From a virus (Duplodnaviria; Caudoviricetes), in IMG/VR virus record IMGVR_UViG_3300037961_002553, positions 4,572-68,571 of that record: a DNA stretch of 64,000 nucleotides, one strand, 5' to 3'. The notes under the pieces are model-generated. The model ran no database searches. It was not told the DNA's origin and saw only the letters and a program-made list of their open reading frames with translations. The translations under genes and the position numbers were made by a program. This document shows positions 244-36,150 of this stretch, one piece after another. Each line of letters starts with the position of its first letter. Positions within the stretch are counted from its first letter, which is position 1.

Positions 244-749
244 CCTGTATCATGTAATGGGAGTAGGCCATACCCTATAATGGTGGCGGTTTTAGCCTTG
301 TTTAATTAAAGTTAATGCTTCAAAGAGGGGCTTTTAAAGCCTTTCGCTCTAGATGAGAAGAAATAAAAAATTTGAAACAAAGCCATATGGTTGTAGATTA
401 TGAATGCGGGAACGGTTGTTAATAACTACCATTTTCATCTATTGTCTTATTTTCATCTTCCTCTACGGTTTGCTATAGAACGCTATTGGTAACTACAAAA
501 TGTTTGTTTACAGCCATCTATGATGAATAACCATCTAAGTGCAGCAACCCTAAATGATAGTTATTAAAAACATTACAACCATATGGTGATGCTTTGCTAT
601 AACCCCCAAGTGGGACGGGAAGAATTACCTCTTTTCTTCCCGCCCCCGTATCTCCCTCTATTCCCTGTTTGTTTGGGTCATAGTGCCATGACGAGAGGCT
701 CATGGCTAACGGGCCGTTTTGGGGTGCTACGGACTTCATGCCGCATTGT

Positions 750-959
750 TTAGTCGTATAGGCCAGCCAAAGCCCATTGATATTCTTCTTCCCATTGTCG
801 CTTGTATTCATCAAGGAAATAGGCAAAGAAGCGACGAGAGGAGAAATTAGGGTTATCTCGCTGGAACATATCGGAAACGGCTTCAACGGTGGCTTGGCTC
901 ACATCAAAGACTTCTGCGAGGGTTTCAGCCATTTTCTTGTAGTGTCGTCGTTGGAACAT
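750..959 (-). CDS. cassette protein with DNPNFSSRRF motif (small phage-type protein)
   Basis: ATG at 959 lies ~22 nt downstream of an AAAACCTTATAT box, consistent with a leaderless transcript. Confidence 0.75.
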   Translation of the reverse strand: MFQRRHYKKMAETLAEVFDVSQATVEAVSDMFQRDNPNFSSRRFFAYFLDEYKRQWEEEYQWALAGLYD

Positions 960-1073
960 GATTAACCGCTTGATAAGCGGATATAAGGTTTTATTACCAA
1001 AGTATGCAACCATATGGTAATTGCTTTGGTTTTACCTCAAGCAGTTTAGACCCATGCTTAGGGGTGTTTAGAC

Positions 1074-1340
1074 TTAGATTACCTTAGAAGCGGCCCAGAC
1101 CTCAAGTTTTTGGATTTCTTCAGTTTGTAGGCCACGGTTAGAAGTCGGGTTAGGGAAACCGTGAATCTCCCGATAGTCGCGCAAACCAAAACGACGGTTC
1201 AAGTTATTCTTCGCGTATAGTCGCATTTTCTGGAATCTGTTGAAGTGTTGGTTAGAGTAGCCCAACCCATTGATTTCGTTCAAACAGAACTCTTCTCCGC
1301 TTATCTTGCATACCCCAGTAACTGTCTTTTCTTTTGACAT
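1074..1340 (-). CDS. cassette hypothetical protein (88 aa)
   Basis: Only ORF between sites 1009 and 1389; AAAACCCTAATATA box ~21 nt upstream. Confidence 0.75.
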   Translation of the reverse strand: MSKEKTVTGVCKISGEEFCLNEINGLGYSNQHFNRFQKMRLYAKNNLNRRFGLRDYREIHGFPNPTSNRGLQTEEIQKLEVWAASKVI

Positions 1341-1425
1341 GATACTTCTTAAATTAGTAATATATTAGGGTTTTATTCAAAGTATCAAACCATATGGTTA
1401 GGCTTTGCATTAACCCCATATAGGG

Positions 1426-2026
1426 GCTTCACAGGGGAAAAAGCCGTGAAGAGTATCATTCCTCCTCGGAAACCTCCATATCTGCTTTCACAGGGGTTGG
1501 AACGATTTGTGGCACACCGTCTTTGACGGCGAGGCCATCCCATCGGTTTTCCTTGATTGCCTTAACCATGTAGGTATGAGCCTTACCACGGAAAGAATCA
1601 ACCAATTCGCTGAAGGAGCCATAAACCCCGCCAGTTCGTCCGTGTGGCACGATAACCGACAGAATCAAGTCGTGATACTCAGTAGGGATTGTGGCAATAG
1701 CACCTGCCACGGTTTCCTCCACAGTCGCCAAAACAAGTTCCTGTTCGTCCGAAAGCGTGGATTCTCGCCCTCGTCGTGCCGCAGGAAAACCCTCCATAGT
1801 GGAGCCAATTGAACGAATAGCCGTCCAATAGGTGCTTCGTAGTTCATCAGTTCCCGCATTATCGCCCAAAGTGAGCGAAAGGAGAACAGCGTTCAAATTG
1901 TCGCTTGGTTCCTGTGTTTCGGCCCAAGCCCGCACTTTGTTTGTGTTCAATGTCCAATTCTTCATCTTCATTTTTTTCACCTCTTTCCTAAAAAAGATAC
2001 TCCGCGTCGTTTTTCCCCTGTGGAGC
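1426..2026. repeat. imperfect ~31-bp inverted repeats (1426-1457 / 1996-2026) bracketing paralog A
   Basis: GCTTCACAGGGGAAAAAGCCGTGAAGAGTATC versus reverse complement GCTCCACAGGGGAAAAACGACGCGGAGTATC. Confidence 0.85.
1456..1971 (-). CDS. cassette paralog A (unknown family; ELRSTYWTAIRSIG, PAARRGRES, PHGRTGG and RWDG motifs)
   Basis: GAGGTG Shine-Dalgarno (SD) before MKMKNW; strongly similar to 2599-3105. Confidence 0.85.
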   Translation of the reverse strand: MKMKNWTLNTNKVRAWAETQEPSDNLNAVLLSLTLGDNAGTDELRSTYWTAIRSIGSTMEGFPAARRGRESTLSDEQELVLATVEETVAGAIATIPTEYHDLILSVIVPHGRTGGVYGSFSELVDSFRGKAHTYMVKAIKENRWDGLAVKDGVPQIVPTPVKADMEVSEEE

Positions 2027-2136
2027 AATAACCCACGCAGGTTGGCGTATAAGGTTGTTTCTACGCAAAGCGATAAACAACCATATGGTGTTGCTTTGTT
2101 TATACCCTAAACAATACACCAACAAAAGAATAGGGC

Positions 2137-2385
2137 ATGAACAACCACCAAGCAACCGCGATTATGAATCTTATTGCAGAAACCTTTCCAAGCCTTATCC
2201 CGTGGCTTGAAGGACAATACATGAAAGCCGTTTTTAAGGATATGACGCTCTATGCCGATGAACCACACGCTATGATTGGATTAGCGGAATTTGCCGCCAG
2301 CATTGAGGCTTTTGCTGATGCTATCGCTGAAGCCTCACTTGAAGAGATGTTTCACCTTATGGCTGATATGATGGGAGGTGCTTGA
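2137..2385 (+). CDS. cassette hypothetical protein (82 aa, acidic, helical)
   Basis: ORF directly after site 2080, with TTTATA at 2099. Confidence 0.7.
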   Translation: MNNHQATAIMNLIAETFPSLIPWLEGQYMKAVFKDMTLYADEPHAMIGLAEFAASIEAFADAIAEASLEEMFHLMADMMGGA

Positions 2386-2387
2386 GT

Positions 2388-2552
2388 ATGAGAATTTCAC
2401 ATTGTCCGACCTGCGGCACAGAATTGGCTAAGGATGATTTCATGTCCTTCGCTTTCATCTTAGGAGGCAACATTTGCCGCCATTGTCTTGAGGACGACCC
2501 TTCGGGGTCAAAAGAACAAAGCATGACCATATGGTTGTGCTTTGCCAGTTGA
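2388..2552 (+). CDS. small CPxCG zinc-finger protein (54 aa) reading through palindromic site 2526
   Basis: GGAGGTG SD; MRISHCPTCG...ICRHC; translated by hand, below the ORF-track cutoff. Confidence 0.6.
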   Translation: MRISHCPTCGTELAKDDFMSFAFILGGNICRHCLEDDPSGSKEQSMTIWLCFAS

Positions 2553-2577
2553 AAACGAAACCCCGCCGCTAAGCGGG

Positions 2578-3153
2578 GCTGCGAGGGGAAAACCCGCATC
2601 ATTCCTCTTCTTGACCTCCTTCAGCCGATTTCACGGCAGGTGGGGTCAATGCTGGGATTTCACCGTTCATGGTTCCATCCCAACGACCTTCTTTGTAGCC
2701 CTTAACGAGAGCGTCATAGGCCTTTTTGCCCATTGACTGAGCAAATGCCATAACATCGTCAAATGCGCCACCAGTTCGCCCATGAGGGAGAATAACGGTG
2801 GTAATGAGGTCAGGGTTAGTAATGCCCGCAAAGGCAGTAATAACCGCATTCTTCACAGAAGTAGCATTTAGGTCTACTTCTTCGGGCAAAGACGATTCTC
2901 GGCCTCGGCGGGCGGCTGGGAAATCATCATAAGGACTCCCAATTGAGCGAATAGCCGTCCAGTAAGTAGACCGCAATTCATCGCTATCCGTTGCATTTCC
3001 AAGTGTAATAGACAAAGAAATGGCTTGACCCACTTCTCCCCTATCTTCACGCTCAAGCCACGCTTGAACGGCATTTGTGTTCTTAATCCAGTTATCTTGC
3101 TTCATAATCAATTCCTCCAAAAAGGTTTGATGCGTCCGTTTTCCCCTCGGAGC
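2578..3153. repeat. inverted repeats (2578-2601 / 3128-3153) bracketing paralog B
   Basis: GCTGCGAGGGGAAAAC-C-CGCATCA versus reverse complement GCTCCGAGGGGAAAAC-GGA-CGCATCA. Confidence 0.85.
2599..3105 (-). CDS. cassette paralog B (same family as 1456-1971)
   Basis: GGAGG SD before MKQDNW; shares DELRSTYWTAIRSIGS, FPAARRGRES, PHGRTGG and RWDG. Confidence 0.85.
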   Translation of the reverse strand: MKQDNWIKNTNAVQAWLEREDRGEVGQAISLSITLGNATDSDELRSTYWTAIRSIGSPYDDFPAARRGRESSLPEEVDLNATSVKNAVITAFAGITNPDLITTVILPHGRTGGAFDDVMAFAQSMGKKAYDALVKGYKEGRWDGTMNGEIPALTPPAVKSAEGGQEEE

Positions 3154-3274
3154 AACCAACGGCGACCATAGGCGACTATGGTTGCTTTTTCATTAAACAC
3201 TCGCAAAGCGAAAAGCAACCATATGGTAGGACTTTGGAAGTAGCCAAGCATAACCACCAATCAAGAGGATAACC

Positions 3275-3568
3275 ATGCAAAGCGTGTTCGTCGTCCAAAC
3301 CAATGAAATGCCTCTCTCCCGAAATCCCGATTGGAAAACTCAACTCCAATTCGGAATCTTCCGCCGTCGTGAAGATGCCGAGAAAACCATGTTCAATGTC
3401 ATGGCTCGCAAAATGCGAGACGGAATTGATGAGATTCGTGAAATGACCTCCACCAAGCGAGGCAAGGGCAAAGCCGCCTACAATGCCAAAGTCTACGAAA
3501 TCACCGAGGAAATCCCACGCTCAATTCGTGTTCACGAAATCCGTGTTTTGCCTGTCAGGGGTTTCTGA
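3275..3568 (+). CDS. cassette hypothetical protein (97 aa, basic)
   Basis: GAGG SD; followed by a GGGGC-TTCG-GCCCC hairpin. Confidence 0.75.
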   Translation: MQSVFVVQTNEMPLSRNPDWKTQLQFGIFRRREDAEKTMFNVMARKMRDGIDEIREMTSTKRGKGKAAYNAKVYEITEEIPRSIRVHEIRVLPVRGF

Positions 3569-3575
3569 CCTTGAC

Positions 3576-3592
3576 GGGGGCTTCGGCCCCCT
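3576..3592 (+). terminator. UUCG-loop hairpin ending the cassette
   Basis: GGGGCTTCGGCCCC right after the stop codon. Confidence 0.55.
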
Positions 3593-3715
3593 CTTGGCTA
3601 AAACAAAGTATTACCATATGGTATTGTTTCTTTGTTATAAATACCCTCCAAAATTCAAATCTTGAGGTTTAGGATTTAAATCAATAAGTTAGGAGCATAC
3701 CCACTTAGGAAGAAC

Positions 3716-3850
3716 ATGAAAGAAGCATACGAAGAAGTCAAGTGGTGGTATGAATTCGCTATGGGCCTAATGGAAGTCTGTCAAAAGAATTACCTCCATG
3801 CGGAGGTGCAAGAGGTGTTAAGTCGCCTTTGCGGGAGTGAGGAAGAATGA
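3716..3850 (+). CDS. cassette small protein (44 aa, MKEAYEEVKWWYEF...)
   Basis: Hand-translated ORF between sites 3613 and 3917. Confidence 0.55.
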   Translation: MKEAYEEVKWWYEFAMGLMEVCQKNYLHAEVQEVLSRLCGSEEE

Positions 3851-4039
3851 AAAGATGACCGATAACCCCTTCAAATACCCATTATATGGGAGCGTTGGGG
3901 TGAATAACAAAGCATTACCATATGGTTGTTGTTATGCTTTGCACTAATCAAATAACCATAAGTGAAACGCCGCCTACTCCATGCATATGAGACTCACTCC
4001 GATACTTTGTTTCTTCATCAAGAATTGGCGCGCCAATAA

Positions 4040-4213
4040 ATGATTACTTGTTGCTTTCTCGCCTTACTGCTCTGTGTTTCGGCTTTGTTTCACTATGGTT
4101 TTATGGCCACTAATAGCCATAGGAATGTGAAAGGGTGGGATGAAGAATTGGGTATCTCCAAGACTGGAGCGATTGGGTCGCTCTCACTAATTGGTGCTCC
4201 TTTGGTTTCTTAA
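4040..4213 (+). CDS. possible small membrane protein (57 aa), preceded by a 20-aa ORF at 3981-4043
   Basis: AACCATAAG box ~20 nt before ATG 3981; ATGA overlap; hydrophobic N-terminus. Confidence 0.4.
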   Translation: MITCCFLALLLCVSALFHYGFMATNSHRNVKGWDEELGISKTGAIGSLSLIGAPLVS

Positions 4214-4273
4214 GAGCCAGTCTGCTGATTTTACGAACATGGTTAGTAGCCATGCGCCTTTTGAGCCTTAATC

Positions 4274-4411
4274 GCTTTCACAGGGAACAAATAATCTATG
4301 CTACTCAGCCGTCATATCTGCTATGTGTCCCACTACAGGAAAAATCACACCTTACCCCCACCAACAAGGGTATTCGGTCAATCCCCTCCGAGGGGAGCGA
4401 CCCCCCGAAGC
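4274..4411 (-). ncRNA. putative ~140-nt structured non-coding RNA cassette
   Basis: AACCATAAG box upstream; begins GCTTCGGGGGG and ends TTCCCTGTGAAAGC like the other cassettes; internal CCCCTCGGAGGGG hairpin; no ORF. Confidence 0.45.
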
Positions 4412-4520
4412 AATAGAACCGAGCGATTATCGCTTATGGTTCTCCATGTGCAAAGCAATATAGAACCATATGGTTTTACTTTGGTAAAACCCCTCAGCAA
4501 TTGCTTCACAGGGGGGATAA

Positions 4521-4883
4521 TCACCATTCATCCCTTGGGTTGAAATAAGTGTGCCTTCCCCTATCATCGGAGACAAAAGAGCCGCCCCAACCCATTTCAT
4601 ATGAGCGAGTTCGCATTTCGGCGTTGTCCTCGTCAATTCGGGCTTGAATGTCCTTGTCGGTATAATGGAACGGTTTGTGCTCTGCTGCGTATTCCTTCCA
4701 AATTGGGAGAATCTCGTCCAAGTCGTCCTTTTCCATCATTTCGGAAGAAACATCGGCCTTCTCCCAAAAGGTTTCATAGATGGTATCTTCGCAGAAGAAA
4801 TACCTAACTCCTTCCATGTCCCTCACCCATCGGTTTTCATCGTCTGTTTTCTCAGTCAGCCATTTGTAAAAAGATTTTGCCAT
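4521..4883 (-). CDS. cassette hypothetical protein (120 aa, acidic and aromatic)
   Basis: GGAGG SD; ATACCTTAAT box upstream; 3' trailer CCCCCCTGTGAAGC. Confidence 0.75.
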   Translation of the reverse strand: MAKSFYKWLTEKTDDENRWVRDMEGVRYFFCEDTIYETFWEKADVSSEMMEKDDLDEILPIWKEYAAEHKPFHYTDKDIQARIDEDNAEMRTRSYEMGWGGSFVSDDRGRHTYFNPRDEW

Positions 4884-5080
4884 TTTTCAACCTCCAGCGA
4901 AAAATTGACGGTAGCGGGCGATTAAGGTATTATTTATTCAAAGTAAATAATACCATATGGTTTGAATAAATCAAAGAGCGCAGAATGTTCTTATTTAGCC
5001 ATATTCAAACACGCTGAAACGGGGAGGATTTTCAGCCCCCAAAAATCCGTCAAATTTGACAGGGTGTTTCTCAACTGTGG

Positions 5081-5545
5081 TTATATTAATTCGTATTCAT
5101 ATTCTAATATTCAATATTAGTATTATAGTAAAATAAATCGGTTGTCTCATGGTTGGGAGGGGATGAGACGAGACAACACACGGAAGAATCATCAAGGTTA
5201 TGCAACATAAGTAAAAATATATTTCTATTATCTCATTATCTCATCATCTCATCATCATCATCACTACTACTACACACAACCCCTTATTTTCTTAGGGGTA
5301 TGGAGAGAGAAAGATTCCCCTTTTGTGATGAGACGAGACGAGACAACTATTTTTTGCGTGTTTCCACAAGGTTCTAGGGGGTTGTGTTGCATAACCCCAT
5401 CGTCTCAAGATGAGACAACAGGCGAGACAGTCTCATGCACATGGCAATCAAAGTTATTTCAATGGGCAAACTATTGTTGAAAATAAAATCTATTTGATTC
5501 AACAAACGGATTAATTTATCATTTAAGTTAAAATGTAAAAGTGAA
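5081..5545. repeat. candidate replication origin or terminus: GAGAC/GTCTC iterons and a TCATCA microsatellite flanked by AT-rich tracts
   Basis: GTTGTCTCAT 5141, ATGAGACGAGACAAC 5163, ATGAGACGAGACGAGACAAC 5328, GTCTCAAGATGAGAC 5402, GAGACAGTCTC 5424; no credible ORF. Confidence 0.55.
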
Positions 5546-5622
5546 AAAGGGCCGTAGAAACTAGGGGTGCTTGTGAAAAAGTTAGTGATTCCCTCAAGGG
5601 AGGTGCATTCGGAGGCATTTCT

Positions 5623-5637
5623 GGACTCCTTTATATA
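5623..5637 (+). promoter_or_regulatory. conserved viral promoter GGACTCCTTTATATA (copy 1)
   Basis: Identical 15-mer also at 14280 and 30221; contains an archaeal TATA box. Confidence 0.75.
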
Positions 5638-5687
5638 CCGAAAGGCAACTGTTGAAAATACCCCGCAAAGGGGAAGGAGAGATATAC

Positions 5688-6161
5688 ATGGATGATACCA
5701 CATGGGAAAGCCTCAAAATTGAGGTGAACGAATACCTTGAAGCCGACACCACGCTTGATGCAGGATTGCGTCAAGTCGTTGAATTGAACCTGCAAATCGG
5801 GACGAACAACCCCGATGAGCGAACTGCCGCCGAAGGTGCGCTTAAAGCACTTTTGAAGGGCCGTGATGGAACCCCGTTCCGCCGAGGCCAAAAGAGCGCA
5901 GTTCCAGCCGCAGTTCGTGTTTCAATTGACCGAATCTGTGGAGTTGTTGAAGAAGCCGCAATTGGCTACTACAACCACGATGCAGTTATTGGTGCAATTA
6001 CCATGAAGCACATCAAATCTGGTGGCGGTGCTTACGATGGCGCAGAAGATTACGCTTCTGCCGTTGTGAAGAGAACCCGAAACAACCTTGGCAAGATGTT
6101 CAAGGACGGTTCTTGGGATGGTAGCGTTGATTCCCTTTTAGGCGAATCAAGCGACCTTTGA
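5688..6161 (+). CDS. diverged paralog C of the cassette family
   Basis: PFRRGQKS, HIKSGGGAYD and SWDG align by eye with PAARRGRES, HGRTGGAFD and RWDG; GGAG SD. Confidence 0.8.
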   Translation: MDDTTWESLKIEVNEYLEADTTLDAGLRQVVELNLQIGTNNPDERTAAEGALKALLKGRDGTPFRRGQKSAVPAAVRVSIDRICGVVEEAAIGYYNHDAVIGAITMKHIKSGGGAYDGAEDYASAVVKRTRNNLGKMFKDGSWDGSVDSLLGESSDL

Positions 6162-6209
6162 AGTTAATTCTTCAAACCCGCACAATTCCAGTTCTCTGAA
6201 CTGAACAAC

Positions 6210-6248
6210 GGGGAATAGGGAGCCAAGGCTCCTTATTCTCCCTTTTTT
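6210..6248 (+). terminator. hairpin plus T-tract terminator
   Basis: GGGAATAGGGAGCC-AA-GGCTCCTTATTCTC followed by CCTTTTTT. Confidence 0.65.
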
Positions 6249-6321
6249 CCACAAGGGGAAAGAGAGGGGCTGAGAGGGGCTTTCGGGCCTCACCTCTCTT
6301 TCCCCGCCTTTGGGTGGTTAA

Positions 6322-6579
6322 ATGCGATTAGTAGAAGAAGTCTTTGTTAAGGCTAAAGAGGATTTAATTTGTCAATCCTGCGGTGTTGATATACCGAAGG
6401 ATAGCAACCATCTTCTTGAGTCTTATGTTCATCATGGCGTTATTTCAACTAGTCATTACTGTTTAAACCCAAAGTGCAATCCACCAAATAATGTTCGTTT
6501 GAAGTTATTTTGGGGAACAATAGCCATAGGCGTTTCTCTGTGGCTAATTTACTTTTTCTATCAAAACGCAGGGTTTTAA
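6322..6579 (+). CDS. zinc-finger protein with C-terminal transmembrane (TM) helix
   Basis: CQSC...HYCLNPKC plus a hydrophobic tail. Confidence 0.65.
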   Translation: MRLVEEVFVKAKEDLICQSCGVDIPKDSNHLLESYVHHGVISTSHYCLNPKCNPPNNVRLKLFWGTIAIGVSLWLIYFFYQNAGF

Positions 6580-6586
6580 GTCTATT

Positions 6587-6661
6587 CGCTTAGGCGACCC
6601 GTGGCGGCGTGGCATATACGCCCTCGGCAGGTGGGGGTATGCTTGAACAGTCGCCAAGCGA
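6587..6661 (+). ncRNA. putative structured small RNA
   Basis: Closing stem TCGCTT(A)GGCGAC / GTCGCCAAGCGA with internal hairpins; lies upstream of the tRNAs. Confidence 0.4.
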
Positions 6662-6720
6662 CTTCATTTCACTTTTACAATTTGAAATGGTGTGGCTTTT
6701 CTTCTGTTTGAGTAATTCAC

Positions 6721-6805
6721 GCTGAGATGGCTGAGTTTGGTTAAAAGCGCAGGGCTTAAACTCCTGTCCGTATATGGTTCGCAGGTTCAAATCCTGCTCT
6801 CAGCA
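6721..6805 (+). tRNA. tRNA-Leu (TAA)
   Basis: Acceptor GCTGAGA/TCTCAGC, anticodon loop CTTAAAC, long variable arm, GTTCAAATC T-loop. Confidence 0.92.
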
Positions 6806-6814
6806 TCTTTTCAC

Positions 6815-6889
6815 GGAACGGTAGCACAGTCTGGTTAGTGCGCCAGTCTCATAAACTGGTGGTCGCAAGTTCAAATCTTGCCCGTTCCA
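6815..6889 (+). tRNA. tRNA with CAT anticodon (elongator Met or Ile2)
   Basis: Acceptor GGAACGG/CCGTTCC; anticodon arm CCAGT-CTCATAA-ACTGG; lacks initiator features. Confidence 0.92.
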
Positions 6890-6897
6890 TTTTACAT

Positions 6898-6959
6898 GGG
6901 GAAGGTTGAACAGGGGGCTAAAGAGTAATGACCGAGCAATCGGTTTTGTTCCCTTCCCC
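6898..6959 (+). ncRNA. putative hairpin RNA downstream of the tRNAs
   Basis: GGGGAAGG...CCTTCCCC closing stem; GAACAG/TTGTTC and ACCGA/TCGGT inner stems. Confidence 0.35.
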
Positions 6960-6990
6960 GCCTATTCCACATTTTTAAGAGGTAATAAAA

Positions 6991-8418
6991 ATGAAACATA
7001 CAAATGAACAAATCGCAATCTTTGATTGCATAGAAAACACAGAAGACCACCTAATTATTAATGCAGGTGCAGGAACAGGGAAAACGACAACGATTGTTGA
7101 AGCAGCAAATCGTATCAATGGACAGAAAGCCGCATTCTTGGCTTTCAATAAGTCTATTGCTACTGAATTAGCAGAAAGACTTCCAACCGATGTGGAAGCG
7201 AAAACCTTCCACGCTTTCGGATTCGCTGCGATTCGTGCGGCTGGTGTTAAAACAAAGGTGAACAATTTTAAGGTCAATAACATTATTAAAGACCTTCATG
7301 GTGCTGATTTTTATGTCGCTCCACTAAAGAAACTTGTTTCTCTCGTTAAGGGAAGTATGGTTGATGGAACCGACAAAAAGGCAATTAACCAACTGATTGA
7401 TGAATACAATATCAACTTCAATTCTGACCGTGAAGAACGAATTGCAGTAGAATCAATACCTGCAATTCTCACGATGTGCCGAACACAGACTCATATCATT
7501 GATTTTGATGACATGATTTGGATGCCCATTGTTAATGGCTATCCTTTCCCAAAATATGATGTTTTGTTTGTTGATGAAGCACAGGATTTTAACGAAGTGC
7601 AACGAGAAATGATTTCTTTGTGCGTCAATGGTGGCCGTTGTATTATTGTCGGTGATAAAAACCAAGCAATTTACGGTTTCCGTGGTGCTGATTCAAACTC
7701 AATTGCCATGTTCCGACAACGACTTCTCAAGGGTGAGAGAAAAATCAGCGAATTTCCTCTCTCAATTACTTGGCGTTGTCCTAAATCGGTTGTTCGTGAG
7801 GCCAACCGATATGTGCGTGAGTTTAATGCTCCTGATTTTGCCGAAGAAGGCACAGTTATTGTAGATGCTCCGTTCAATCCACAACGAAATGATATGGTTC
7901 TTTGCCGATACAATGCTCCTTTGGTGTCTGCTTTCTATGATTTGATTTCACAGGGCAAATCGGCTTATGTTCTTGGTCGTGATATGACGAAGGGTTTAAT
8001 TACCGCCGTTCAAAAGATTTCTAAGAACAACCACATGGGCGTTGAAGAGTTCACGCAGTTATTCCAAAAAGACTTTGCTTACAACTATCAACGACTTCTT
8101 GACCAAAACAAAGAGAATCAAGCGATGGCTCTTGAAGATAAGCGTGATTGTATTATGATTTTCGTCAAGAAAGCAACGACTGTTGGTGGAATCATTGAAG
8201 AGATTAAGCGTGTCTTTGATGGAAATGATGAAGGTGAAATCATGCTTTCAACTGTTCACAAGGCTAAAGGTCTTGAAGCAGACAATGTTTATATTCTCGC
8301 AACTGAGCGAATGCCTCATCCATACGGTAGTTTGGAAGAGAACAACATTTGCTATGTAGCGATTACACGGGCCAAAAAGAATTTGTTCTATTGTGGCCCA
8401 AAACCAGGAAAAATTTGA
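6991..8418 (+). CDS. UvrD/Rep-like superfamily 1 helicase
   Basis: AGAGTGKT, VDEAQD, VGDKNQAIYGFRGA, STVHKAKGLE, YVAITRAK. Confidence 0.95.
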   Translation: MKHTNEQIAIFDCIENTEDHLIINAGAGTGKTTTIVEAANRINGQKAAFLAFNKSIATELAERLPTDVEAKTFHAFGFAAIRAAGVKTKVNNFKVNNIIKDLHGADFYVAPLKKLVSLVKGSMVDGTDKKAINQLIDEYNINFNSDREERIAVESIPAILTMCRTQTHIIDFDDMIWMPIVNGYPFPKYDVLFVDEAQDFNEVQREMISLCVNGGRCIIVGDKNQAIYGFRGADSNSIAMFRQRLLKGERKISEFPLSITWRCPKSVVREANRYVREFNAPDFAEEGTVIVDAPFNPQRNDMVLCRYNAPLVSAFYDLISQGKSAYVLGRDMTKGLITAVQKISKNNHMGVEEFTQLFQKDFAYNYQRLLDQNKENQAMALEDKRDCIMIFVKKATTVGGIIEEIKRVFDGNDEGEIMLSTVHKAKGLEADNVYILATERMPHPYGSLEENNICYVAITRAKKNLFYCGPKPGKI

Positions 8419-8427
8419 GGTGAAAAA

Positions 8428-8643
8428 ATGAAATATGCAGAATTTATGAAAATTACAGATAAGTGGTCGGACAACGACATAGTTTGTTTCTTGATGGAAT
8501 ATCCATTGTGGAACGAAATGGTTATGCGTTTTATTATGCATAAGTGGCGTGATGATTGCCCCATTGAATATGAAGAGATTGAATGGTATGCTAATGACAA
8601 CAATATCATGGAATACACGGATTTGCCAGAGGTGGAAGAATGA
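8428..8643 (+). CDS. hypothetical protein
   Basis: GAGGTG SD; in operon. Confidence 0.7.
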   Translation: MKYAEFMKITDKWSDNDIVCFLMEYPLWNEMVMRFIMHKWRDDCPIEYEEIEWYANDNNIMEYTDLPEVEE

Positions 8644-8834
8644 TTACACGAATGCATTGTCGCCATGTTGATTATGAATTGACCGCAGAAGATTTGGAAT
8701 TGAACGAAATTTACAACATCATCCATCAACACTTTGTTTGTTTGGATTGTGGTGCAATTGGTGAACGAACATACCGTATTCCTAATAAAATCACTTGGAA
8801 CGGTAATCAAGACACCTTGCCTTTGGAGGAATAA
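8640..8834 (+). CDS. small zinc-binding protein
   Basis: CRH...CLDCG; ATGA overlap. Confidence 0.65.
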   Translation: MITRMHCRHVDYELTAEDLELNEIYNIIHQHFVCLDCGAIGERTYRIPNKITWNGNQDTLPLEE

Positions 8835-8836
8835 AT

Positions 8837-10141
8837 ATGGAATCAATCGTAGCAAAGCGAGAACTCGGTAATGGCCGATGGGATAAAGCCCTAAAGCGCA
8901 AAATGGTTGAATTGTCTGTTGCTGATAACTATGATGAAGCAAAAGAAGAATGGATTGCTACTGGTGAAGTTTGGTGGGCAGGAAACGAAGAAGTTCCTGA
9001 TTGGGTCGCTAATTCACAAATGGGACAAGGCAAATGTCTTTGTGGACATATTGTAGTTTATCACTTTCAAATCACCAACACCGAAAATGGCGTTGTTGAA
9101 TGCGTTGGTAGCGACCATATCAATACATATCTTATTATGCGAGCAATTGCAGAAGATGAGGGCATTTCAATTAATGCTATCACCGATGAGAAGATTCAAG
9201 AATGGATTGATGTGCGAACTAAATCAATGAAAGCAGAAGCGTGGTGGAAAGCCAACGGTGCTGGATTTGAAATGATGTTTGATTCTGTCAAGGAAATGGA
9301 TTTGTTCTTCAATGTTCGTGATACCAACAAAACCTTTTATGACTCTGAGATTCAAGCATATTCAACTGAAAAGCATATCCGTAAGCGAGCCGAAGGTCAA
9401 TTTGGTAGTCCTGAATATAAGATGGCTTCTATTGTTTGGCGTTGGAATCACCCAGATAATCCAAAGGCTCAAATCAATACGACAGGCTATCCGAATGATA
9501 ACTTGATGAAGGATTTGTCTTTGTTCTATGTGATGCAAGCCCAGTATCTTCCACAATTCAATAAAGCAAAGAAAGCGCGTGAAGAACGAATCTTTGAAAT
9601 TGCAGAAAGAAAGCGACGAGCAGAAGAACGAATGGAACGGGAACGAATTGCCCGTGAAGAACGAGAAGCCGAGCGTTTGCGTATTTACAATCTTCCTGAA
9701 AATGTTGAGAAGCGTCGTCTTCAAGCAATTGAAGAAGAAAAGCGTTTAGCGTCGTTGGCTGAAGCCCGACGACTTGCAGCAATTGAAGATGAAAAGCGTC
9801 GTAAAGCAAGAGCCATTCAAAGACAAATGGAGCAAGAAGACACTCTTCGGAATAATAATTCCGAGTTTGAGAATATGTGTGGCTACTATGGTATTCCAGT
9901 ATTTGATGAATCTTATGCAGGTAATGATTGGGAACGGGAGTTTTTGTCAAGTGTTAAGGAACAAATGTTGTCGGGCAAATCAATGTCCGATAGGCAACTT
10001 AGCACCATGAAAAGGATTCTAACCCAAGAGCCAGCAACATCAAAGCAAATTAACTACTTGATTAGCCTTGGCTTTGAAGGTCAAACTGATAATTTATCAA
10101 AAATGCAAGCAAGCAAGTTAATTAGTGAATATATTCAATAG
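8837..10141 (+). CDS. hypothetical protein: N-terminal Zn-binding region, central coiled coil, C-terminal PATxKQ..YL motif
   Basis: CLCGH...CVGSDH; E/R-rich helix; PATSKQINYLISLG...LSKMQASKLI. Confidence 0.8.
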   Translation: MESIVAKRELGNGRWDKALKRKMVELSVADNYDEAKEEWIATGEVWWAGNEEVPDWVANSQMGQGKCLCGHIVVYHFQITNTENGVVECVGSDHINTYLIMRAIAEDEGISINAITDEKIQEWIDVRTKSMKAEAWWKANGAGFEMMFDSVKEMDLFFNVRDTNKTFYDSEIQAYSTEKHIRKRAEGQFGSPEYKMASIVWRWNHPDNPKAQINTTGYPNDNLMKDLSLFYVMQAQYLPQFNKAKKAREERIFEIAERKRRAEERMERERIAREEREAERLRIYNLPENVEKRRLQAIEEEKRLASLAEARRLAAIEDEKRRKARAIQRQMEQEDTLRNNNSEFENMCGYYGIPVFDESYAGNDWEREFLSSVKEQMLSGKSMSDRQLSTMKRILTQEPATSKQINYLISLGFEGQTDNLSKMQASKLISEYIQ

Positions 10142-17388: not shown

Positions 17389-18546
17389 ATGAAACTAAGA
17401 ATTAAAAAACCAGATGATAGTAATGATTATTTTGAAACGAACATTACTTGTGCTACCTATAATTTTAGAGAAGTTATGACGGTTAGTTATCTGCGAAGTG
17501 CTAAAGACCCAATTCAAGCAGGATTGGAAGCCTTTTGGAAAGATATTATTTCTCCTAGAAAATCAAGGAGAACCTATTATAATGGCTTTGGATATAACTT
17601 TCATCATATTGTTTTTATTGAAGGTTGTCCTATCGTTCTTTCAAGAGAAGGCATTCGTTATCAACTGAATGGTAAATCATACAGCCTTGCGACTATTTGT
17701 TCTGCTTTAGCAAGAATTACTTACAAATCATGTTTTGAGAAGAAGCCAGACGCTTTATTGTCTGCTTTGTATGCTACACTTAATTTACCAGAGAATGTCA
17801 AATATTGTATTGAAAATCGTGCGCCATTTCATTTCTTCCAAGACTTTGAGAAGCAAGATGTTCGTTTGAATGTCGTTCAAATTGATGATAAGATGCTCGC
17901 TATGGAAATCAGCGATGGTGTTTGGGGTGAAATAACTCCGAAGCAACTTGACTCTTACTGTAATTTCTATGTTCATGGTAAGCGAAGAGGCTCATGGAAG
18001 TATCTTTCTCCTAAATCCCTATATACTAGGTTGATGGGTCGTGAACCAACGGAGGCTGAATTGAAAGTGATGGTCGCCTTTTTGATGCAGAACAGAATGC
18101 AAGACATTGTGGATGCAAGAGCATTAGAATTAGTGGCTGATATGTTGGTTCAACACAAAGGCCGACTATCTGCTGAATATGACAATGATGGGGTTCTAAC
18201 AAATCTCTTCGTTAGAGGTAAAGATTATGATTGGCAATTGACAAATAATCGCTATAAGTCTGGTATTCAAATGGTTTCAACCTATGTCTGGCAACCAGTC
18301 TTAGAAGTCATTAGAGATGAAGATGATGTTAAAATCATCAAGGAAAAGAAAATGTCCGAACCAGATTGGCGTGGCCCAATTTGTATTGATAATATGGCTG
18401 ATGGCTCTCCATTAGGCGACCAATTCGCCGCAAGAGCGTTAGCCCTTCTTAACGACTCCTTTACAATAACAATAGTGAATACGATTAAGCGGTATCTTGC
18501 CGCCGAACCAAATGAATATAGGATTGATAATGATGATTTGCGATGA
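17389..18546 (+). CDS. putative E2-like (UBC-fold) conjugating protein with a large N-terminal domain
   Basis: C-terminal GPICIDNMADGSP...ALALLND resembles the E2 pattern G.ICLDIL...WSP...LL.D. Confidence 0.5.
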   Translation: MKLRIKKPDDSNDYFETNITCATYNFREVMTVSYLRSAKDPIQAGLEAFWKDIISPRKSRRTYYNGFGYNFHHIVFIEGCPIVLSREGIRYQLNGKSYSLATICSALARITYKSCFEKKPDALLSALYATLNLPENVKYCIENRAPFHFFQDFEKQDVRLNVVQIDDKMLAMEISDGVWGEITPKQLDSYCNFYVHGKRRGSWKYLSPKSLYTRLMGREPTEAELKVMVAFLMQNRMQDIVDARALELVADMLVQHKGRLSAEYDNDGVLTNLFVRGKDYDWQLTNNRYKSGIQMVSTYVWQPVLEVIRDEDDVKIIKEKKMSEPDWRGPICIDNMADGSPLGDQFAARALALLNDSFTITIVNTIKRYLAAEPNEYRIDNDDLR

Positions 18547-19390
18547 ATGTGGTAGCAACAATAACTCATTTGATGAGATACAAGGCGAAAGAATTTGTAA
18601 TGACTGTGGGCTTATCTTAGTCCAAGAGATGTTTGAAGAAACCGTTCACATTTTAGATACGGGCGGGAACCTCAAACATTCTGCTGATAAAGGCAGATTA
18701 GGTTCTGTTATTACAGGTAAAGGTTCTTACAAGTTTAATAAGTTCGGTAAGAATAGCGTAATTCCTCAGCATATTCAAAATGCTCTAATGCATTGTAATA
18801 TGATTTTGGCTCATGTTGCTCCTAATTTGGGATTGAATGAGCGTGTTGAGAAACTGTATCTTGATTTACATAGTAAGGGCGTATTCGGAAGAAGTCAAAT
18901 TGAAGCAAGAGCAACAGCAGTTGTCTTTTATGCTTTGAGAGAGAATGGAACGCCACATACCTTTGCAGAAGTTTCTGCTGAATTTGATGCTAACTTAAAA
19001 TCAGTTAAGAGATTAGTTAGAAAGATTAACCAAGTCTTTAGAAACAAAGCAGGTTATAGTCCTGTTAATCCACAGTATCTTTTAGAGAAAACTCTCAATG
19101 ATATTACCGATGATTTGGTGTTTAGGAGACAAACTATCAAGGTGTTGGAGTTCTTTGAAACAAAGGTAGCGCAAAATACCTTCAACAAGGGAAGGTCATA
19201 TTATGCTTCTATTATTTGGATTTCAGCAAACATGAATGTGAACACATTGATAACTCAAAATCTAATCACAAAGAAAACGGGGTTCTCTCGTTTCAATATT
19301 AGACGACAAACAAAAGCAATTCTATCTATGATTGGTTTAGAACTAGCCAGTCAAGTAAAAGGAAAACAATTAAGCGAACTAGGTGAATAA
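18530..19390 (+). CDS. tfb: transcription initiation factor TFB (TFIIB family)
   Basis: CDECGS...D..QGERICNDCGLI zinc ribbon; GRS...ATAVVFYALR and GRS..ASIIWI cyclin repeats. Confidence 0.88.
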   Translation: MMICDECGSNNNSFDEIQGERICNDCGLILVQEMFEETVHILDTGGNLKHSADKGRLGSVITGKGSYKFNKFGKNSVIPQHIQNALMHCNMILAHVAPNLGLNERVEKLYLDLHSKGVFGRSQIEARATAVVFYALRENGTPHTFAEVSAEFDANLKSVKRLVRKINQVFRNKAGYSPVNPQYLLEKTLNDITDDLVFRRQTIKVLEFFETKVAQNTFNKGRSYYASIIWISANMNVNTLITQNLITKKTGFSRFNIRRQTKAILSMIGLELASQVKGKQLSELGE

Positions 19391-19727: not shown

Positions 19728-20285
19728 ATGAGAAAAGTATTAGTAATTGGAGCAGGCGGAATTGGAAGTTTTCTAATTCCTACATTAGATAAAGTTGGTC
19801 TTTACCGCATTCATGTGGCTGACCCCGATGGTGTAGAAACAAAGAATCTACCTTATCAAAACTTTAAGAAAGGCCATGTTGGGCAGAATAAGGCTCAAGT
19901 AATGATGGATTCCTACGAATCTGTTAGTTCTTTCAGTAAATACCCAATTTTAACGGCAAAACAAATGGAGGGCTATGACCTTGTGATTTGTTGCGTTGAT
20001 AACTTGGGCGTGAGGCGAACCTTATACAACACAACCCTTAAATGGCTTGACTTACGAGCGCAAGGCAGAAATGCCGCCCTTGTGTCGCATAAGGCCGACC
20101 CGAAGATGTATGATATGCTCTTAGCAGGTGAAGAAGGTTCATTCAGTTGTCAAGGGGATTCTTGGGATGGAACAAATAGTAATGTTCATTTTATGCAGGT
20201 CGCAATTGCAGGATTAGGCGCACAATGGATTCAAAGATACTTCAATGATGAAGAAGTGAGAGATTATATGGTGGTGAATGTATGA
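19728..20285 (+). CDS. ThiF/MoeB family E1-like adenylyltransferase
   Basis: VIGAGGIGS, DPDGVETKNLPYQ, GQNKA, DLVICCVDN...R; candidate catalytic Cys in FSCQ. Confidence 0.9.
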   Translation: MRKVLVIGAGGIGSFLIPTLDKVGLYRIHVADPDGVETKNLPYQNFKKGHVGQNKAQVMMDSYESVSSFSKYPILTAKQMEGYDLVICCVDNLGVRRTLYNTTLKWLDLRAQGRNAALVSHKADPKMYDMLLAGEEGSFSCQGDSWDGTNSNVHFMQVAIAGLGAQWIQRYFNDEEVRDYMVVNV

Positions 20286-21325
20286 GCAAAAAAAGAAATT
20301 TTTGGACGGATGAACAGTTAGCGTTCCTTGTTGTTTGCAGAACGAAGAAGCAATCATGGGAGCAGATTGCTAACTCTATGCAAGAGAAGTTCGGCTTTTG
20401 GAGAAGTCCCGCTAACATTGGCTCAAAATACCGTAGTCTATTTGATGGCGACCATGCCAAAGAATATACGCCCCAACAATCAAAATTCATTATTGATTGC
20501 TATTTGAATCACTTCCAGACAAAAGTGATTCTTGATGGTTATTTTGAACAGTTTGGTCAAAACATCAAGGAATCAGATATTGATGATGTCGTCAAAAAGC
20601 ATCTAGCGACAGAAAAGAAAGTAGATGCTGAAATCAAAACAATAAAAACAAAAATTAAGGAGAGAAAAAATATGAAGAGAAACGCATGGACAAAAGAAGA
20701 AGATGAGCAATTGCTTGCTTGTGGTTCTTGGAAAGAAGCGATGGAATTGCAGAATGGTCGTTCAAGGACGGCTAAGAACAACCGTTGGGCTTTGCTACAA
20801 AAGCGAAGAAAAGAACAAAAGAAAGGCGCAAAGCGTGGACGAATGACAAAGGCTGAATTAGAAATGATTCGCAATTGTAAAACTGTTGAAGAAGCATTGG
20901 CATTGAATTTGCGAAAGCCCGAAACAATTATTCGGCAATTTACTACTTTCAATTCAAAGAAGAAAGAAGTTGTGCTTGCTGTTGAGCCTAAGCCAAAGAA
21001 GGAGCGTAAGCAATATGCCCCTCGTTGGACGAAAGAAGAGGATTATGACCTAATCTTGAACTTTTACGAACTTTCAATTGACGAAGCCCGAAACCGATTT
21101 AATCGGTCATACGGGGCTATCGCAACCCGCTTAGAAAAGTTGGTTGATAGCACAAAGCCTGAGCATATCTCTATGCTTATGGAGGCTTCTAAGGAAATCA
21201 AGAGTCGCAAGAAGGCACAGAACCCAACGCCCAAAAAGAGCCGCAGAACGCTACGGAAGGAGCGAAAGAAGGCTAAGAAAGAGGCTAAGTTGAAGGCCAA
21301 GTTGCAGAAAATCCGAGGTGAATAA
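20282..21325 (+). CDS. multi-repeat Myb/SANT-like helix-turn-helix protein with Lys-rich tail
   Basis: Repeats WTDEQL, YTPQQS, WTKEEDEQL, MTKAEL, WTKEEDYDL, several followed by RS/RT-type HTH helices. Confidence 0.7.
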   Translation: MSKKRNFWTDEQLAFLVVCRTKKQSWEQIANSMQEKFGFWRSPANIGSKYRSLFDGDHAKEYTPQQSKFIIDCYLNHFQTKVILDGYFEQFGQNIKESDIDDVVKKHLATEKKVDAEIKTIKTKIKERKNMKRNAWTKEEDEQLLACGSWKEAMELQNGRSRTAKNNRWALLQKRRKEQKKGAKRGRMTKAELEMIRNCKTVEEALALNLRKPETIIRQFTTFNSKKKEVVLAVEPKPKKERKQYAPRWTKEEDYDLILNFYELSIDEARNRFNRSYGAIATRLEKLVDSTKPEHISMLMEASKEIKSRKKAQNPTPKKSRRTLRKERKKAKKEAKLKAKLQKIRGE

Positions 21326-27374: not shown

Positions 27375-27745
27375 AAGAAGAATCAGCAATATGGAATACA
27401 AAATACTTTGCAGACCAACATGGGCGTTGCAGGAAGATTTCCAAAATGAGCATGAATCAAACAAATGCAGCAATTAGAACTTCATTTACGAGAATGAAAA
27501 CTTCTATGCTACATTTAGAGAGACTCTATCAACGGAGATATGTTTTGAAGCAAGCATTAGGAGAAGAAGATTACATGGTGAGAAACCACAAGCAAAAGAT
27601 TATTCAAAATCTTGGTTTGAAATCGGAACTTGAGAAGAACGAACATATGCAACAGATTCTTCTAACTGCTTTGAGTTTCATTGAAAGTGGAAAAGACATT
27701 TCTTTGATTAAGGCTATTCTTGAACAAGCGAGGGATGATGAATGA
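27371..27745 (+). CDS. hypothetical protein
   Basis: Coupled ORF. Confidence 0.6.
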   Translation: MKEESAIWNTKYFADQHGRCRKISKMSMNQTNAAIRTSFTRMKTSMLHLERLYQRRYVLKQALGEEDYMVRNHKQKIIQNLGLKSELEKNEHMQQILLTALSFIESGKDISLIKAILEQARDDE

Positions 27746-35928: not shown

Positions 35929-36146
35929 CCGATGATAGAGTATATTTAGAAACACTAAAAGAAATTAAAAACATGAAAGAACAAATGCATAAAGAAATTT
36001 CTAGAATGAAGGCGGAAATGGATATTATGTATATTGAATTACAAAGAGCAAAACAAGAAATTGGTGCTATTCGTGAAATACAAGAAGAAGTAGCAAAATT
36101 AGCAGGTGTTCCTGTTGGAATGCTATTTACAAATTACCGAGCGTGA
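35925..36146 (+). CDS. coiled-coil hypothetical protein
   Basis: ATGA overlap; heptad pattern. Confidence 0.6.
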   Translation: MTDDRVYLETLKEIKNMKEQMHKEISRMKAEMDIMYIELQRAKQEIGAIREIQEEVAKLAGVPVGMLFTNYRA

Positions 36147-36150
36147 TAAC

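Follow-up and report, generated by a model that had tools for sequence, protein, structure and literature searches.

The stretch of DNA considered here (the window, 64,000 nucleotides (nt) in length) comprises bases 4572-68571 of the 68,571-base virus record IMGVR_UViG_3300037961_002553, which is estimated to be 74% complete. Near its left end lies an array of small genes. This marine archaeal virus holds its small accessory genes in one array of self-contained cassettes, which are joined by an invariant 10-base palindrome, ACCATATGGT, hereafter the core. A conserved gene just to the right of the array, a paralogue of two of the cassette genes (A and B), is used below as the anchor. The features of the locus are listed here from left to right. 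Junction features carry no strand, ORF denotes an open reading frame and aa amino acids, L numbers denote loci of relatives, X10 is a DNA sequencing run, and the 22 arrays are a non-redundant, anchored set described below.

382-391: left-boundary variant core GCCATATGGT, whose left (fixed-flank) side is without a hairpin
392-577: first cassette, 196 base pairs (bp) core to core, no ORF of at least 40 aa; nucleotide-level family 3, which is the first cassette in 7 of the 22 arrays
578-587: core ACCATATGGT, junction 1, exact match
750-959, minus strand: cargo ORF, 69 aa, no family match
1009-1018: core, junction 2; the TATA-like box of the gene running from 959 to 750 is just past its left hairpin
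1074-1340, minus strand: cargo ORF, 88 aa, no family match
1389-1398: core, junction 3, exact match
1456-1971, minus strand: paralogue A, 171 aa, helical family; its cassette family is in 16 of the 22 arrays
2080-2089: core, junction 4, with divergent genes on either side (paralogue A, minus; ORF 2137, plus)
2137-2385, plus strand: cargo ORF, 82 aa, by ORF call
2388-2552, plus strand: cargo ORF, 54 aa, zinc-ribbon-like (sub-threshold Pfam matches only), running through the core at 2526
2526-2535: core, junction 5, between convergent 3' ends; CAAAG and CTTTG are each 4 nt from the core
2599-3108, minus strand: paralogue B, 169 aa; its cassette family is in 15 of the 22 arrays
3218-3227: core, junction 6, with divergent genes on either side
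3275-3568, plus strand: cargo ORF, 97 aa, by ORF call
3613-3622: core, junction 7, exact match; an X10 contig joins 3609 to 3914
3716-3850, plus strand: cargo ORF, 44 aa; its cassette (3613-3917) is inverted in L121 and L122 and absent from the X10 contig
3917-3926: core, junction 8, exact match, on the far side of the X10 contig joint
4132-4407, minus strand: manA-like structured RNA (sub-threshold RF01745 match), starting ~25 nt after a TATA-like box beside the hairpin 4438-4467
4465-4474: core, junction 9, exact match
4521-4883, minus strand: cargo ORF, 120 aa, by ORF call
4952-4961: core, junction 10, the right array boundary, ~735 nt upstream of the anchor gene, as in nine anchored relatives
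5688-6161, plus strand: conserved anchor gene, 157 aa, third paralogue of A and B, just downstream (right) of the array

The window contains ten exact cores, at 578, 1009, 1389, 2080, 2526, 3218, 3613, 3917, 4465 and 4952. Dinucleotide shuffles (n = 100) held 0.05 copies on average, and none of the 100 reached ten. A search of the window with one mismatch added only GCCATATGGT at 382 and an unrelated ACCTTATGGT at 17305. No further exact copy is present in the full 68,571-base record, i.e., the window plus the remaining ~4.5 kb. Core-to-core intervals span 196-692 bp, and the cassettes of paralogues A and B measure 691 and 692 bp. An earlier reading of this DNA made from the letters alone (the sequence-only reading) had given these core coordinates with the variant at 382, these intervals and these two cassette lengths, and all were reproduced. 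Its statistical claim is correct, and its statement that the full 10-mer occurs nowhere else in the window now extends to the whole record. The ORF map bears out its account of mixed orientations with one or two small ORFs per interval, and site 2526 does lie between two convergent 3' ends, those of the ORFs at 2388-2552 (plus) and 2599-3108 (minus).

The array is shared by relatives of the virus. Viral contigs were scanned with the core plus one arm (the CAAAG or CTTTG motif beside it), which gave at least 116 loci. Among the 116 listed, at least three exact cores are present in 57, two in seven and one in 52. In four complete relatives (G001, G003, G004 and G005), all exact cores are in one ~3.5-kb array of 7-8 sites. 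A fifth complete relative, G002 (184,733 bases), has two different arrays, at 5306-9029 and 99604-103195. Each has an anchor copy of its own downstream (89% and 68% identity to the window's), and the G002 record looks like two related genomes joined in one sequence.

With the anchor gene as landmark, 26 loci could be oriented. All cores (2-11 per locus) are 0.56-5.65 kb upstream of the anchor in 24 of these, and none is found downstream of it (up to 8 kb) in the same 24 loci. Of the remaining two loci, one has no more than 390 bases upstream, and the other is a distant paralogue, L146, with a core at +567. L126 and L144 (same spacing as L125 and L145), L140 and L142 (truncated) and L146 (paralogue) were dropped from the anchored set, and cassettes longer than 2500 bp or shorter than 60 bp were excluded. 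The 22 non-redundant arrays hold 160 exact cores and 32 cores with one mismatch, 19 of which are the left-boundary variant GCCATATGGT. In these arrays, 10-mers with two mismatches are no commoner than in the flanks, and the 257 kb of flanking sequence contains no exact core. The core sequence is unchanged while the identity of the anchor protein falls to 64%.

We also searched 185,579 species genomes for the two-armed site. There are 38 loci, and 37 of them are single sites in unrelated bacteria, with ~35 estimated by chance. None of the host-type genomes in this set, Poseidoniales included, has the two-armed site. The sole array among the 38 is L174, a 14.8-kb contig with five two-armed sites, which is binned in a metagenome-assembled genome of the flavobacterial Altibacter sp.; one homologue of the anchor protein is also labelled Altibacter. 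L174 is most likely a mis-binned magrovirus fragment.

The anchor protein is 26% identical to paralogue A. Together with A and B, it belongs to a family with 242 close homologues and 194 representative clusters, all without a name beyond hypothetical-protein labels. We found no sequence match for the family in Pfam, PHROG or PDB, and the ESM Atlas gave "hypothetical protein" clusters only. An AF2 model (predicted local distance difference test (pLDDT) 70) is all-helical, and its best Foldseek match in PDB has E = 1.4, i.e., there is no fold match. Since the helical family has no annotated match, it is a positional candidate only for a factor that binds the site.

From one relative to another, cassettes appear or disappear, change place, give way to diverged alleles and occasionally lie inverted, and the crossovers stay within the ~10-bp core. 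The window and its closest locus, L119 (81-87% identity), align as whole cassettes from core to core, and in L119 paralogue B comes after the first junction and A later, an order that differs from that of the window. L021 is without three of the window cassettes, the junctions being at cores. L094 and L033 are 90-96% identical and share ~4.5 kb of colinear flank. Their 11 matching cassettes are reordered, three are inverted (including a 499-bp one at 91.5% identity), and nine of the 11 align from centre to centre over the full length. The 162 cassettes of the 22 anchored arrays fall into 76 nucleotide-level families. The commonest of these has at least eight different left neighbours among its 16 members. 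The order of A and B is one way in three genomes and the opposite in 12, and one cassette is transposed among L130, L131 and L132. L121 and L122, with anchor proteins 97% identical to the window's, carry the window cassette 3613-3917 in the opposite orientation; compared with L122, 232 of 320 columns are identical as reverse complement vs 174 of 326 forward, and the inversion takes in both terminal hairpins. Inversion was seen in one of 26 multi-member cassette families, and the other 25 keep one orientation relative to the anchor gene. Thus, the array seems unlike a frequently flipping shufflon.

The boundaries of the exchanged units could be placed precisely in close pairs (at least 84% identity). 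Where the neighbour has changed, homology comes within 3 nt of the core centre in 52 of 61 cases, and the corresponding count where the neighbour is the same is 49 of 51. In low-identity pairs, homology often fades before the core and reaches it at 184 of 453 boundaries. When all loci were compared against all, 31.5% of the ends of high-scoring segment pairs were within 20 bp of a core vs 12.5% of random points, which is a real, modest enrichment. Cassette and backbone identities are decoupled (72% vs 94% and 78.5% vs 97.6%, and the opposite way, 87% vs 76%), which indicates that diverged alleles have been exchanged between lineages. The sequence-only reading had proposed a symmetric site that allows cassettes to be acquired, shuffled or inverted, and had suggested the alignment of relatives as a check. 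The alignments place the breakpoints of gain, loss, transposition and inversion at the cores, and a fixed order and orientation with breakpoints unrelated to the sites is not what the relatives show. Cassette events at the sites therefore stand, and inversion is probably infrequent, given the 25 families of fixed orientation.

Words from the array are present in 20 sequencing runs from 12 studies. One X10 contig (1312 nt) passes directly from 3609 to 3914 and so skips the cassette 3613-3917; the two sides share 13 letters. An X17 contig of 431 nt skips the cassette 1009-1389 by joining 1007 to 1388, where 11 letters are shared; X17 is an RNA library seen as assembled contigs and has no bearing on transcription. 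Because the shared 11-13 nt are assumed to be shorter than the assembler k-mers, we read these joints as real molecules. Loose contig ends are found at the cores 578, 2078, 2526, 2538 and 3926. Joints with sides shorter than 30 nt were not used (1477 to 4465, 2099 to 4952, 2544 to 3907, 394 to 574, 395 to 2080 and 3227 to 4465), and no circular or "goes back" joints were reported among the run contigs.

When half-sites are aligned by gene end, the CAAAG and CTTTG arms are seen to be the loops of two hairpins that flank the central ATAT. Outward from the centre, a half-site consists of GGT plus stem x, a loop with RCTTTG, and stem x' plus ACC. The core is made up of the foot of the left hairpin (ACC), ATAT, and the foot of the right hairpin (GGT), and the consensus of the whole junction is (GGT-stem-(CAAAG loop)-stem-ACC) ATAT (GGT-stem-(CTTTG loop)-stem-ACC), with stems that are cassette-specific. 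The arms had been described in the sequence-only reading as set off from the core by a 4-nt spacer. They are indeed present at most sites, but 4 nt is merely the commonest value, and they are hairpin loops instead of spacer-separated half-sites. The apparent spacer varies because stem length varies. Across 315 unique sites in relatives, the arm offset is 2-12 with a mode of 4, in a sample that favours 4, since an N4 pattern was used to retrieve the loci, and 46 sites are without an arm within 12 nt on either side.

The stems covary. Watson-Crick stems of at least 5 bp, contiguous from the GGT base, are present in 37.2% of 621 unique, unselected half-sites vs 8.0% of chimeras, in which the 5' strand of one site was paired with the remainder of another. 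The corresponding values are 20.0% vs 2.8% for at least 6 bp and 10.5% vs 0.8% for at least 7 bp. All four pair types are found at stem positions 4-6 (e.g., TA 85, GC 81, AT 53 and CG 40 at one position), and CTTTG is present in 204 of 231 loops. The mean minimum free energy of 765 half-sites is -6.10 kcal/mol, vs -4.16 for shuffles and -4.74 for chimeras (Mann-Whitney p = 1e-19). In the window, at least four contiguous pairs form in 14 of the 22 half-sites, and the strongest stems (8, 10 and 11 bp) are upstream of paralogue A, paralogue B and ORF 4883. Since a hairpin and half a core are present at both ends, the cassettes have inverted terminal structures. The window hairpins, likewise given without strand, are as follows.

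1016-1036: 5-bp stem GGTAA/TTACC, CTTTG in the loop; 3' end of the cassette 1019-1388
1369-1391: 5-bp stem, CAAAG in the loop; adjoins the TATA-like box TAATATAT (minus strand)
1396-1415: 5-bp stem GGTTA/TAACC; 3' end of the paralogue A cassette
2053-2082: 8-bp stem; adjoins TTATAC (minus strand), upstream of paralogue A
2087-2120: 5-bp stem, with a shorter alternative that has one G-T pair; upstream of ORF 2137
2506-2528: 5-bp stem GGTCA/TGACC; within the 3' end of the ORF 2388-2552
3180-3220: 10-bp stem; upstream of paralogue B
3620-3645: 6-bp stem GGTATT/AATACC; upstream of ORF 3716
4438-4467: 6-bp stem; adjoins ATAAGC (minus strand), upstream of the manA-like RNA
4472-4491: 8-bp stem GGTTTTAC/GTAAAACC, loop TTTG; 3' end of the cassette 4475-4951
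4926-4954: 11-bp stem; adjoins TTAATC (minus strand), upstream of the ORF running from 4883 to 4521

As predicted from its sequence, each cassette is an autonomous unit with a hairpin, a TATA-like box, a small gene or RNA, a GC-rich hairpin and a terminal hairpin. In 163 single-gene cassettes, the median distance from the core centre is 65 nt to the start codon and 68 nt to the stop codon. On the 5' sides of these cassettes, ACCCTA, ACCTTA and TATA-like words are enriched directly after the hairpin, and on the 3' sides a second GC-rich hairpin is enriched (CCGAAG, 45 vs 1). In the window, the boxes TTATAT, TAATAT, TTATAC, ATAAGC and TTAATC adjoin hairpins upstream of five units. Because ACC plus TATA words outside the array are mostly in coding sequence, a general promoter consensus is not derivable from them. 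We also considered a spacer rule, with 4 nt at 3' ends and 6-9 nt at 5' ends. This was rejected as a mere tendency, the 3' mode being 4 (56 of 163) and the 5' modes 6 (42), 4 (33) and 5 (29).

The cargo probably includes RNA. The RF01745 (manA) match at 4132-4407 scores 47.4 bits, below the gathering score of 55.2, with E = 4.5e-11 over the full model length. Its cassette (3927-4464) has no convincing ORF, the longest being 81 aa, and belongs to a family found in 11 of the 22 arrays. A second match of full model length, at 5163-5399 (plus strand) of L033, has 48.6 bits, again below the gathering score of 55.2, and E ~1e-10; it lies in a 497-bp cassette of another array lineage, likewise without a convincing ORF and inverted relative to L094. 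No RF01745 match at or above the gathering score was found in nine relatives. manA RNAs are known from marine bacteria and cyanophages, and to our knowledge an archaeal-virus home for this RNA would be new.

Further features of the cassettes were noted by eye. Both paralogue cassettes have in the 5' leader a hairpin of the GCTYC..AGGGGAAAA type, whose inverse recurs towards the 3' end, the regions concerned being 1426-1460, 1990-2040, 2565-2600 and 3125-3160. In a second array lineage (L033 4586-7141 and L094 8288-10795), non-coding cassettes of 100-150 bp are found between CCATATGG cores. These short cassettes are without CTTTG arms, and approximately eight of ten in L033 carry, in either orientation, a motif like CACTTCGTTT...ACTAAGCGT.

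The other genes of the window include a UvrD helicase, a ribonucleotide reductase, a Cpn60-type chaperonin, an ATP-dependent ligase, an RFC-like clamp loader, a tail tube protein, a PD-(D/E)XK nuclease and an ERCC4-HhH nuclease, and a family-B polymerase (PolB) in two ORFs (33770-35437 and 36106-37044). Magroviruses of group B are described as ~100-kb genomes with a split PolB, a ribonucleotide reductase, a chaperonin and a ligase in the replicative block (Philosof 2017, PMC5434244). The window has the corresponding gene content, and the complete relatives measure 94.6-96.9 kb, which fits a group-B-like magrovirus. No DNA match and no near relative were found among GenBank phages, where the best PolB match is a Halorubrum virus at 25.7%, and the magrovirus assignment thus rests on gene content. 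The array can be taken to be the hyperplastic accessory-gene region of a magrovirus-type archaeal tailed virus. Three window genes possibly encode virus transcription or chromatin factors, i.e., a TFB-like protein at 18497-19390 (plus strand; zinc ribbon with 24.7 bits vs a cut-off of 29, plus a weak TFIIB repeat), a histone-fold protein at 27742-28185 (plus strand; sub-threshold, 19.2 bits vs 21.4) and a D5-like/Myb-like putative regulator at 20282-21325 (plus strand).

Two neighbouring regions have features of their own. Immediately right of the array, the stretch 5100-5430 contains iteron-like repeats, GATGAGACGAGAC(A/G)A, in three direct copies (5162, 5327 and 5409) and one partial inverted copy (5141-5150). 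The same stretch includes an AT-rich near-palindrome (5101-5123) and long inverted repeats. The cumulative GC-skew minimum, at ~4-6 kb, is close to this region, which may be a replication origin. To the left of the window, record bases 540-4393 hold five minus-strand ORFs of 109, 280, 68, 102 and 135 aa. These have a similar N-terminus, M-(S/G)-W-(K/R/F)-(D/E)-I-(L/I/R)-(K/R), which may be a targeting or processing signal.

We suggest that the junction is a PeSL-like (promoter-early stem-loop) terminator/promoter element, probably protein-bound, which doubles as a recombination hotspot, and we hold this with evenly balanced confidence. The twin hairpins and the A/T-rich box would insulate the cassettes transcriptionally in either direction, acting as a composite of terminator and promoter comparable to the PeSLs of T4-type phages. 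Binding of a predicted dimeric protein would account for the conservation of the loops and of the invariant palindrome. Short-homology recombination or template switching between cores would then lead to deletion, insertion, transposition and inversion of whole units. Such exchange would rely on replication and repair enzymes of the virus itself (nucleases, helicase and ligase), for which the encoded ERCC4-HhH nuclease, PD-(D/E)XK nuclease, UvrD helicase and ATP-dependent ligase are candidates. Since no sequence but the core is shared by all junctions, and the core is symmetric between the strands, it would channel short-homology exchange into whole-unit events.

A number of points weigh against this proposal. 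The promoter and terminator roles are read from sequence, the runs having been seen as contigs. A perfect stem of at least 5 bp is present in only 37% of half-sites, the stability is modest, and the hairpin is absent or weak at roughly half. The mismatch types (17 G-T/T-G vs 7 A-C) give no clear strand or RNA-vs-DNA signal. We know of no requirement for hairpins in archaeal termination, and a pure terminator would need neither conserved loops nor an invariant core. The distance from core to TATA-like box depends on how long the hairpin is, which fits a classical operator poorly, and no binding protein for the core was found. At the junctions, identity covers only ~10 bp and the 5-nt loops, which is little for classical homologous recombination; the conservation of PeSLs spans ~100 bp (PMC2839356). 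Rad51/RadA (PF08423) has no Pfam match in the contig or the four complete relatives, and a RadA-like ATPase is reported in all magroviruses (Philosof et al., PMC5434244).

The main alternative is a dedicated system of site-specific exchange, and here the search for recombinases matters. Tyrosine recombinases (PF00589) and serine recombinases (PF00239) each gave no match in the contig and the four complete relatives, with controls positive in 14 of 14 known genomes for the former and in known genomes for the latter. No Y1 HUH transposase (PF01797) was above cut-off in the five records, where one 15-bit match, in G003, is outside the array; its control, too, was positive in known genomes. Pfam and PHROG scans of 50 window ORFs, apart from the structural module and the initial 4.5 kb of the contig, also found no recombinase. 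This extends the sequence-only reading, which had seen none in the window, to the whole contig and four complete relatives. Its integron- or shufflon-like layout fails as membership of either class, since neither a tyrosine nor a serine recombinase is found. A dedicated system could still be of another kind. In it, a viral enzyme outside these two families would cut the central ATAT of the twin-hairpin junction and rejoin it. Such an enzyme may be a structure-specific nuclease acting with the viral ligase, or the helical family that supplies the anchor and the commonest cassettes, and a palindromic cut site would permit either orientation. Many observations fit. Crossovers stay within the 10-bp core, which is conserved in an all-or-none manner (160 exact copies, few decayed ones and none beyond the arrays), and insertions in five complete genomes are solely at cores, never elsewhere. 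Whole-cassette inversions take the terminal hairpins along, and these covarying hairpins recall folded attC sites, while the distinct conserved left-edge variant is analogous to attI. Close relatives (anchor protein 97% and backbone DNA ~90-94% identical) differ by several events, and one gene family always adjoins the array and is its commonest cargo. On the other side are the recombinase and transposase results just given, an adjacent helical family without an invariant Ser or Tyr (with a moderate model and no PDB fold match), an orientation so widely fixed that flipping is probably rare, and run contigs among which circular or "goes back" joints were not reported. Because the narrow crossover window, the all-or-none cores, the boundary variant and the flanking and cargo family are all un-PeSL-like, we keep dedicated exchange as a tentative, minority reading. 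In its fullest form the array would be an integrase-free "viral integron", with junctions cut and rejoined by virus enzymes of no known recombinase family, which we think somewhat doubtful. Equally doubtful is the part of that idea in which the units, structured RNA too, would be captured, moved, flipped and traded between ocean virus lineages.

The remaining explanations have less in their favour. The palindrome could be purely an operator, a dimeric transcription-factor site that co-regulates the small genes, with the rearrangements incidental. A 10-bp perfect palindrome is typical of dimeric regulators, the cores are a median of 65 nt from start codons with TATA-like boxes nearby, and candidate regulators are encoded (the sub-threshold TFB-like protein at 18497-19390 and the D5-like/Myb-like protein at 20282-21325). 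However, site 2526 has no adjacent promoter, a half-site is present at both cassette ends, 3' ends included, and the other lineage has arrays of 100-150-bp non-coding cassettes. In addition, the core-to-TATA spacing is variable, breakpoints are at cores far above chance, and the two-armed site is in no host-type genome, with 37 of the 38 genome matches single and near the chance estimate. We therefore regard a pure operator as unlikely. Alternatively, the hairpins could be single-strand initiation or origin-associated structures, and recombination a by-product of stalled forks. The iteron-like GATGAGACGAGAC repeats and AT-rich palindrome directly to the right of the array, the nearby skew minimum, and hairpins without strand bias, as for folding at the DNA level, point in this direction. 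GC skew, though, also tracks gene orientation and so is not independent evidence, the junctions, lying between genes across 4.6 kb, do not resemble known origins, and the asymmetry of gene ends fits transcription better, which makes a replication role very improbable. An assembly artefact, in which repeats would have produced chimeric contigs and the shuffling would be unreal, is scarcely credible. All compared genomes are metagenome assemblies, but the 11-13 nt shared at the junctions are assumed to be shorter than assembler k-mers, so that real reads are needed, the same cassette families recur in independent assemblies and studies, and the flanks are colinear.

We conclude that the array is real, family-wide and, as far as our search went, previously undescribed, and that it is best read as a PeSL kind of mobile regulatory cassette with integron-like logic and without integron membership. 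By word search, palindrom, promoter and inverted repeat are absent from the texts of the magrovirus papers PMC5434244, PMC11706807 and PMC10160649, whose supplements may hold motif analyses. The words intergenic, motif, cassette and recombinase are also absent from the one or two of those papers searched for each. The 10-mer accatatggt is found in 52 papers, and 20 of these look unrelated by their titles (neuroscience, enzymology and cloning). In the surface ocean, magroviruses rank among the most abundant viruses (Philosof 2017, PMC5434244). Most of their small genes are without known function, and the fixed junction splits this accessory genome into portable units. It provides a rule for finding and delimiting accessory cassettes, non-coding RNA cargo included, in thousands of metagenomic contigs. 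It also offers a natural setting in which to study modular exchange driven by short palindromes and hairpins in an archaeal virus, for which the only precedent found is a passing comparison made for HGTV-1. In addition, the ~60-bp junction is a concrete bait for a protein that binds or cuts it. If the exchange is enzymatic, it would be a new kind of site-specific recombination.

The array differs from several known systems of repeats and mobile units. Unlike miniature inverted-repeat transposable elements and repetitive extragenic palindromes, the cores are not dispersed, with one array in the present contig and in G001, G003, G004 and G005, and two in G002. Unlike IS200/IS605 elements, it is found without a Y1 HUH transposase above cut-off in the five records. 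In the shufflon of R64 (Rci/sfx) and other invertible-segment systems, too, short repeats delimit multiple segments whose order or orientation can change. A shufflon depends on a tyrosine recombinase and varies the C-terminus of a single gene, whereas here there is no Rci-type or Hin/Gin-type recombinase, the genes are independent, and inversion is rare (one of 26 families).

The likeness to integrons is closer. In both, there is an array at a single locus with a short conserved junction core, cassette-specific imperfect inverted repeats that vary in length and keep their pairing, one distinct boundary site, and insertion only at existing sites. Integron cassettes are mostly promoterless and in one orientation behind a common promoter, and the core of the attC junction is GTTRRRY. 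Here, the core is ACCATATGGT, there is no IntI-type tyrosine recombinase, hairpins are at both cassette ends, the cassettes have their own TATA-like boxes and mixed orientations, and the host of the array is a lytic-type archaeal virus. HGTV-1, a haloarchaeal myovirus, is described as having a TATA-plus-inverted-repeat motif before left-arm ORFs, which was likened to PeSLs (Sencilo et al. 2013, per PMC3950731). Compared by that description, both are archaeal tailed viruses with a TATA-like box and an inverted repeat before many small ORFs. We know of no invariant palindromic junction or cassette inversion from HGTV-1.

The closest comparison is with the PeSLs themselves. In T4-type phages, these are promoter plus stem-loop composites that bound ORFans in hyperplastic regions (Arbiol et al. 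2010, PMC2839356; Comeau et al. 2014, PMC4122927). They are reported to mediate indels and replacements by homologous recombination, and mini-circles were shown experimentally (PMC2839356; PMC4122927). As in our array, short composites are repeated beside small genes in a hyperplastic region, and here covarying hairpins adjoin TATA-like boxes on the 5' sides. In both, indels and replacements between close relatives map to the motifs (here at 52 of 61 changed-neighbour boundaries and in core-to-core contigs), and the cassette carries its own promoter and terminator, which in our case are predicted from sequence. PeSLs, however, have sigma-70 -35/-10 boxes and ~100 bp of conservation, in contrast to TATA-like boxes and a 10-bp palindrome with two 5-nt loops, and they are scattered over several regions at ~50 per genome, in contrast to one array per genome at a fixed locus. 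The present system belongs to an archaeal virus, with cassettes known from contigs alone, and it adds twin covarying hairpins at each junction and the inversion of whole cassettes.

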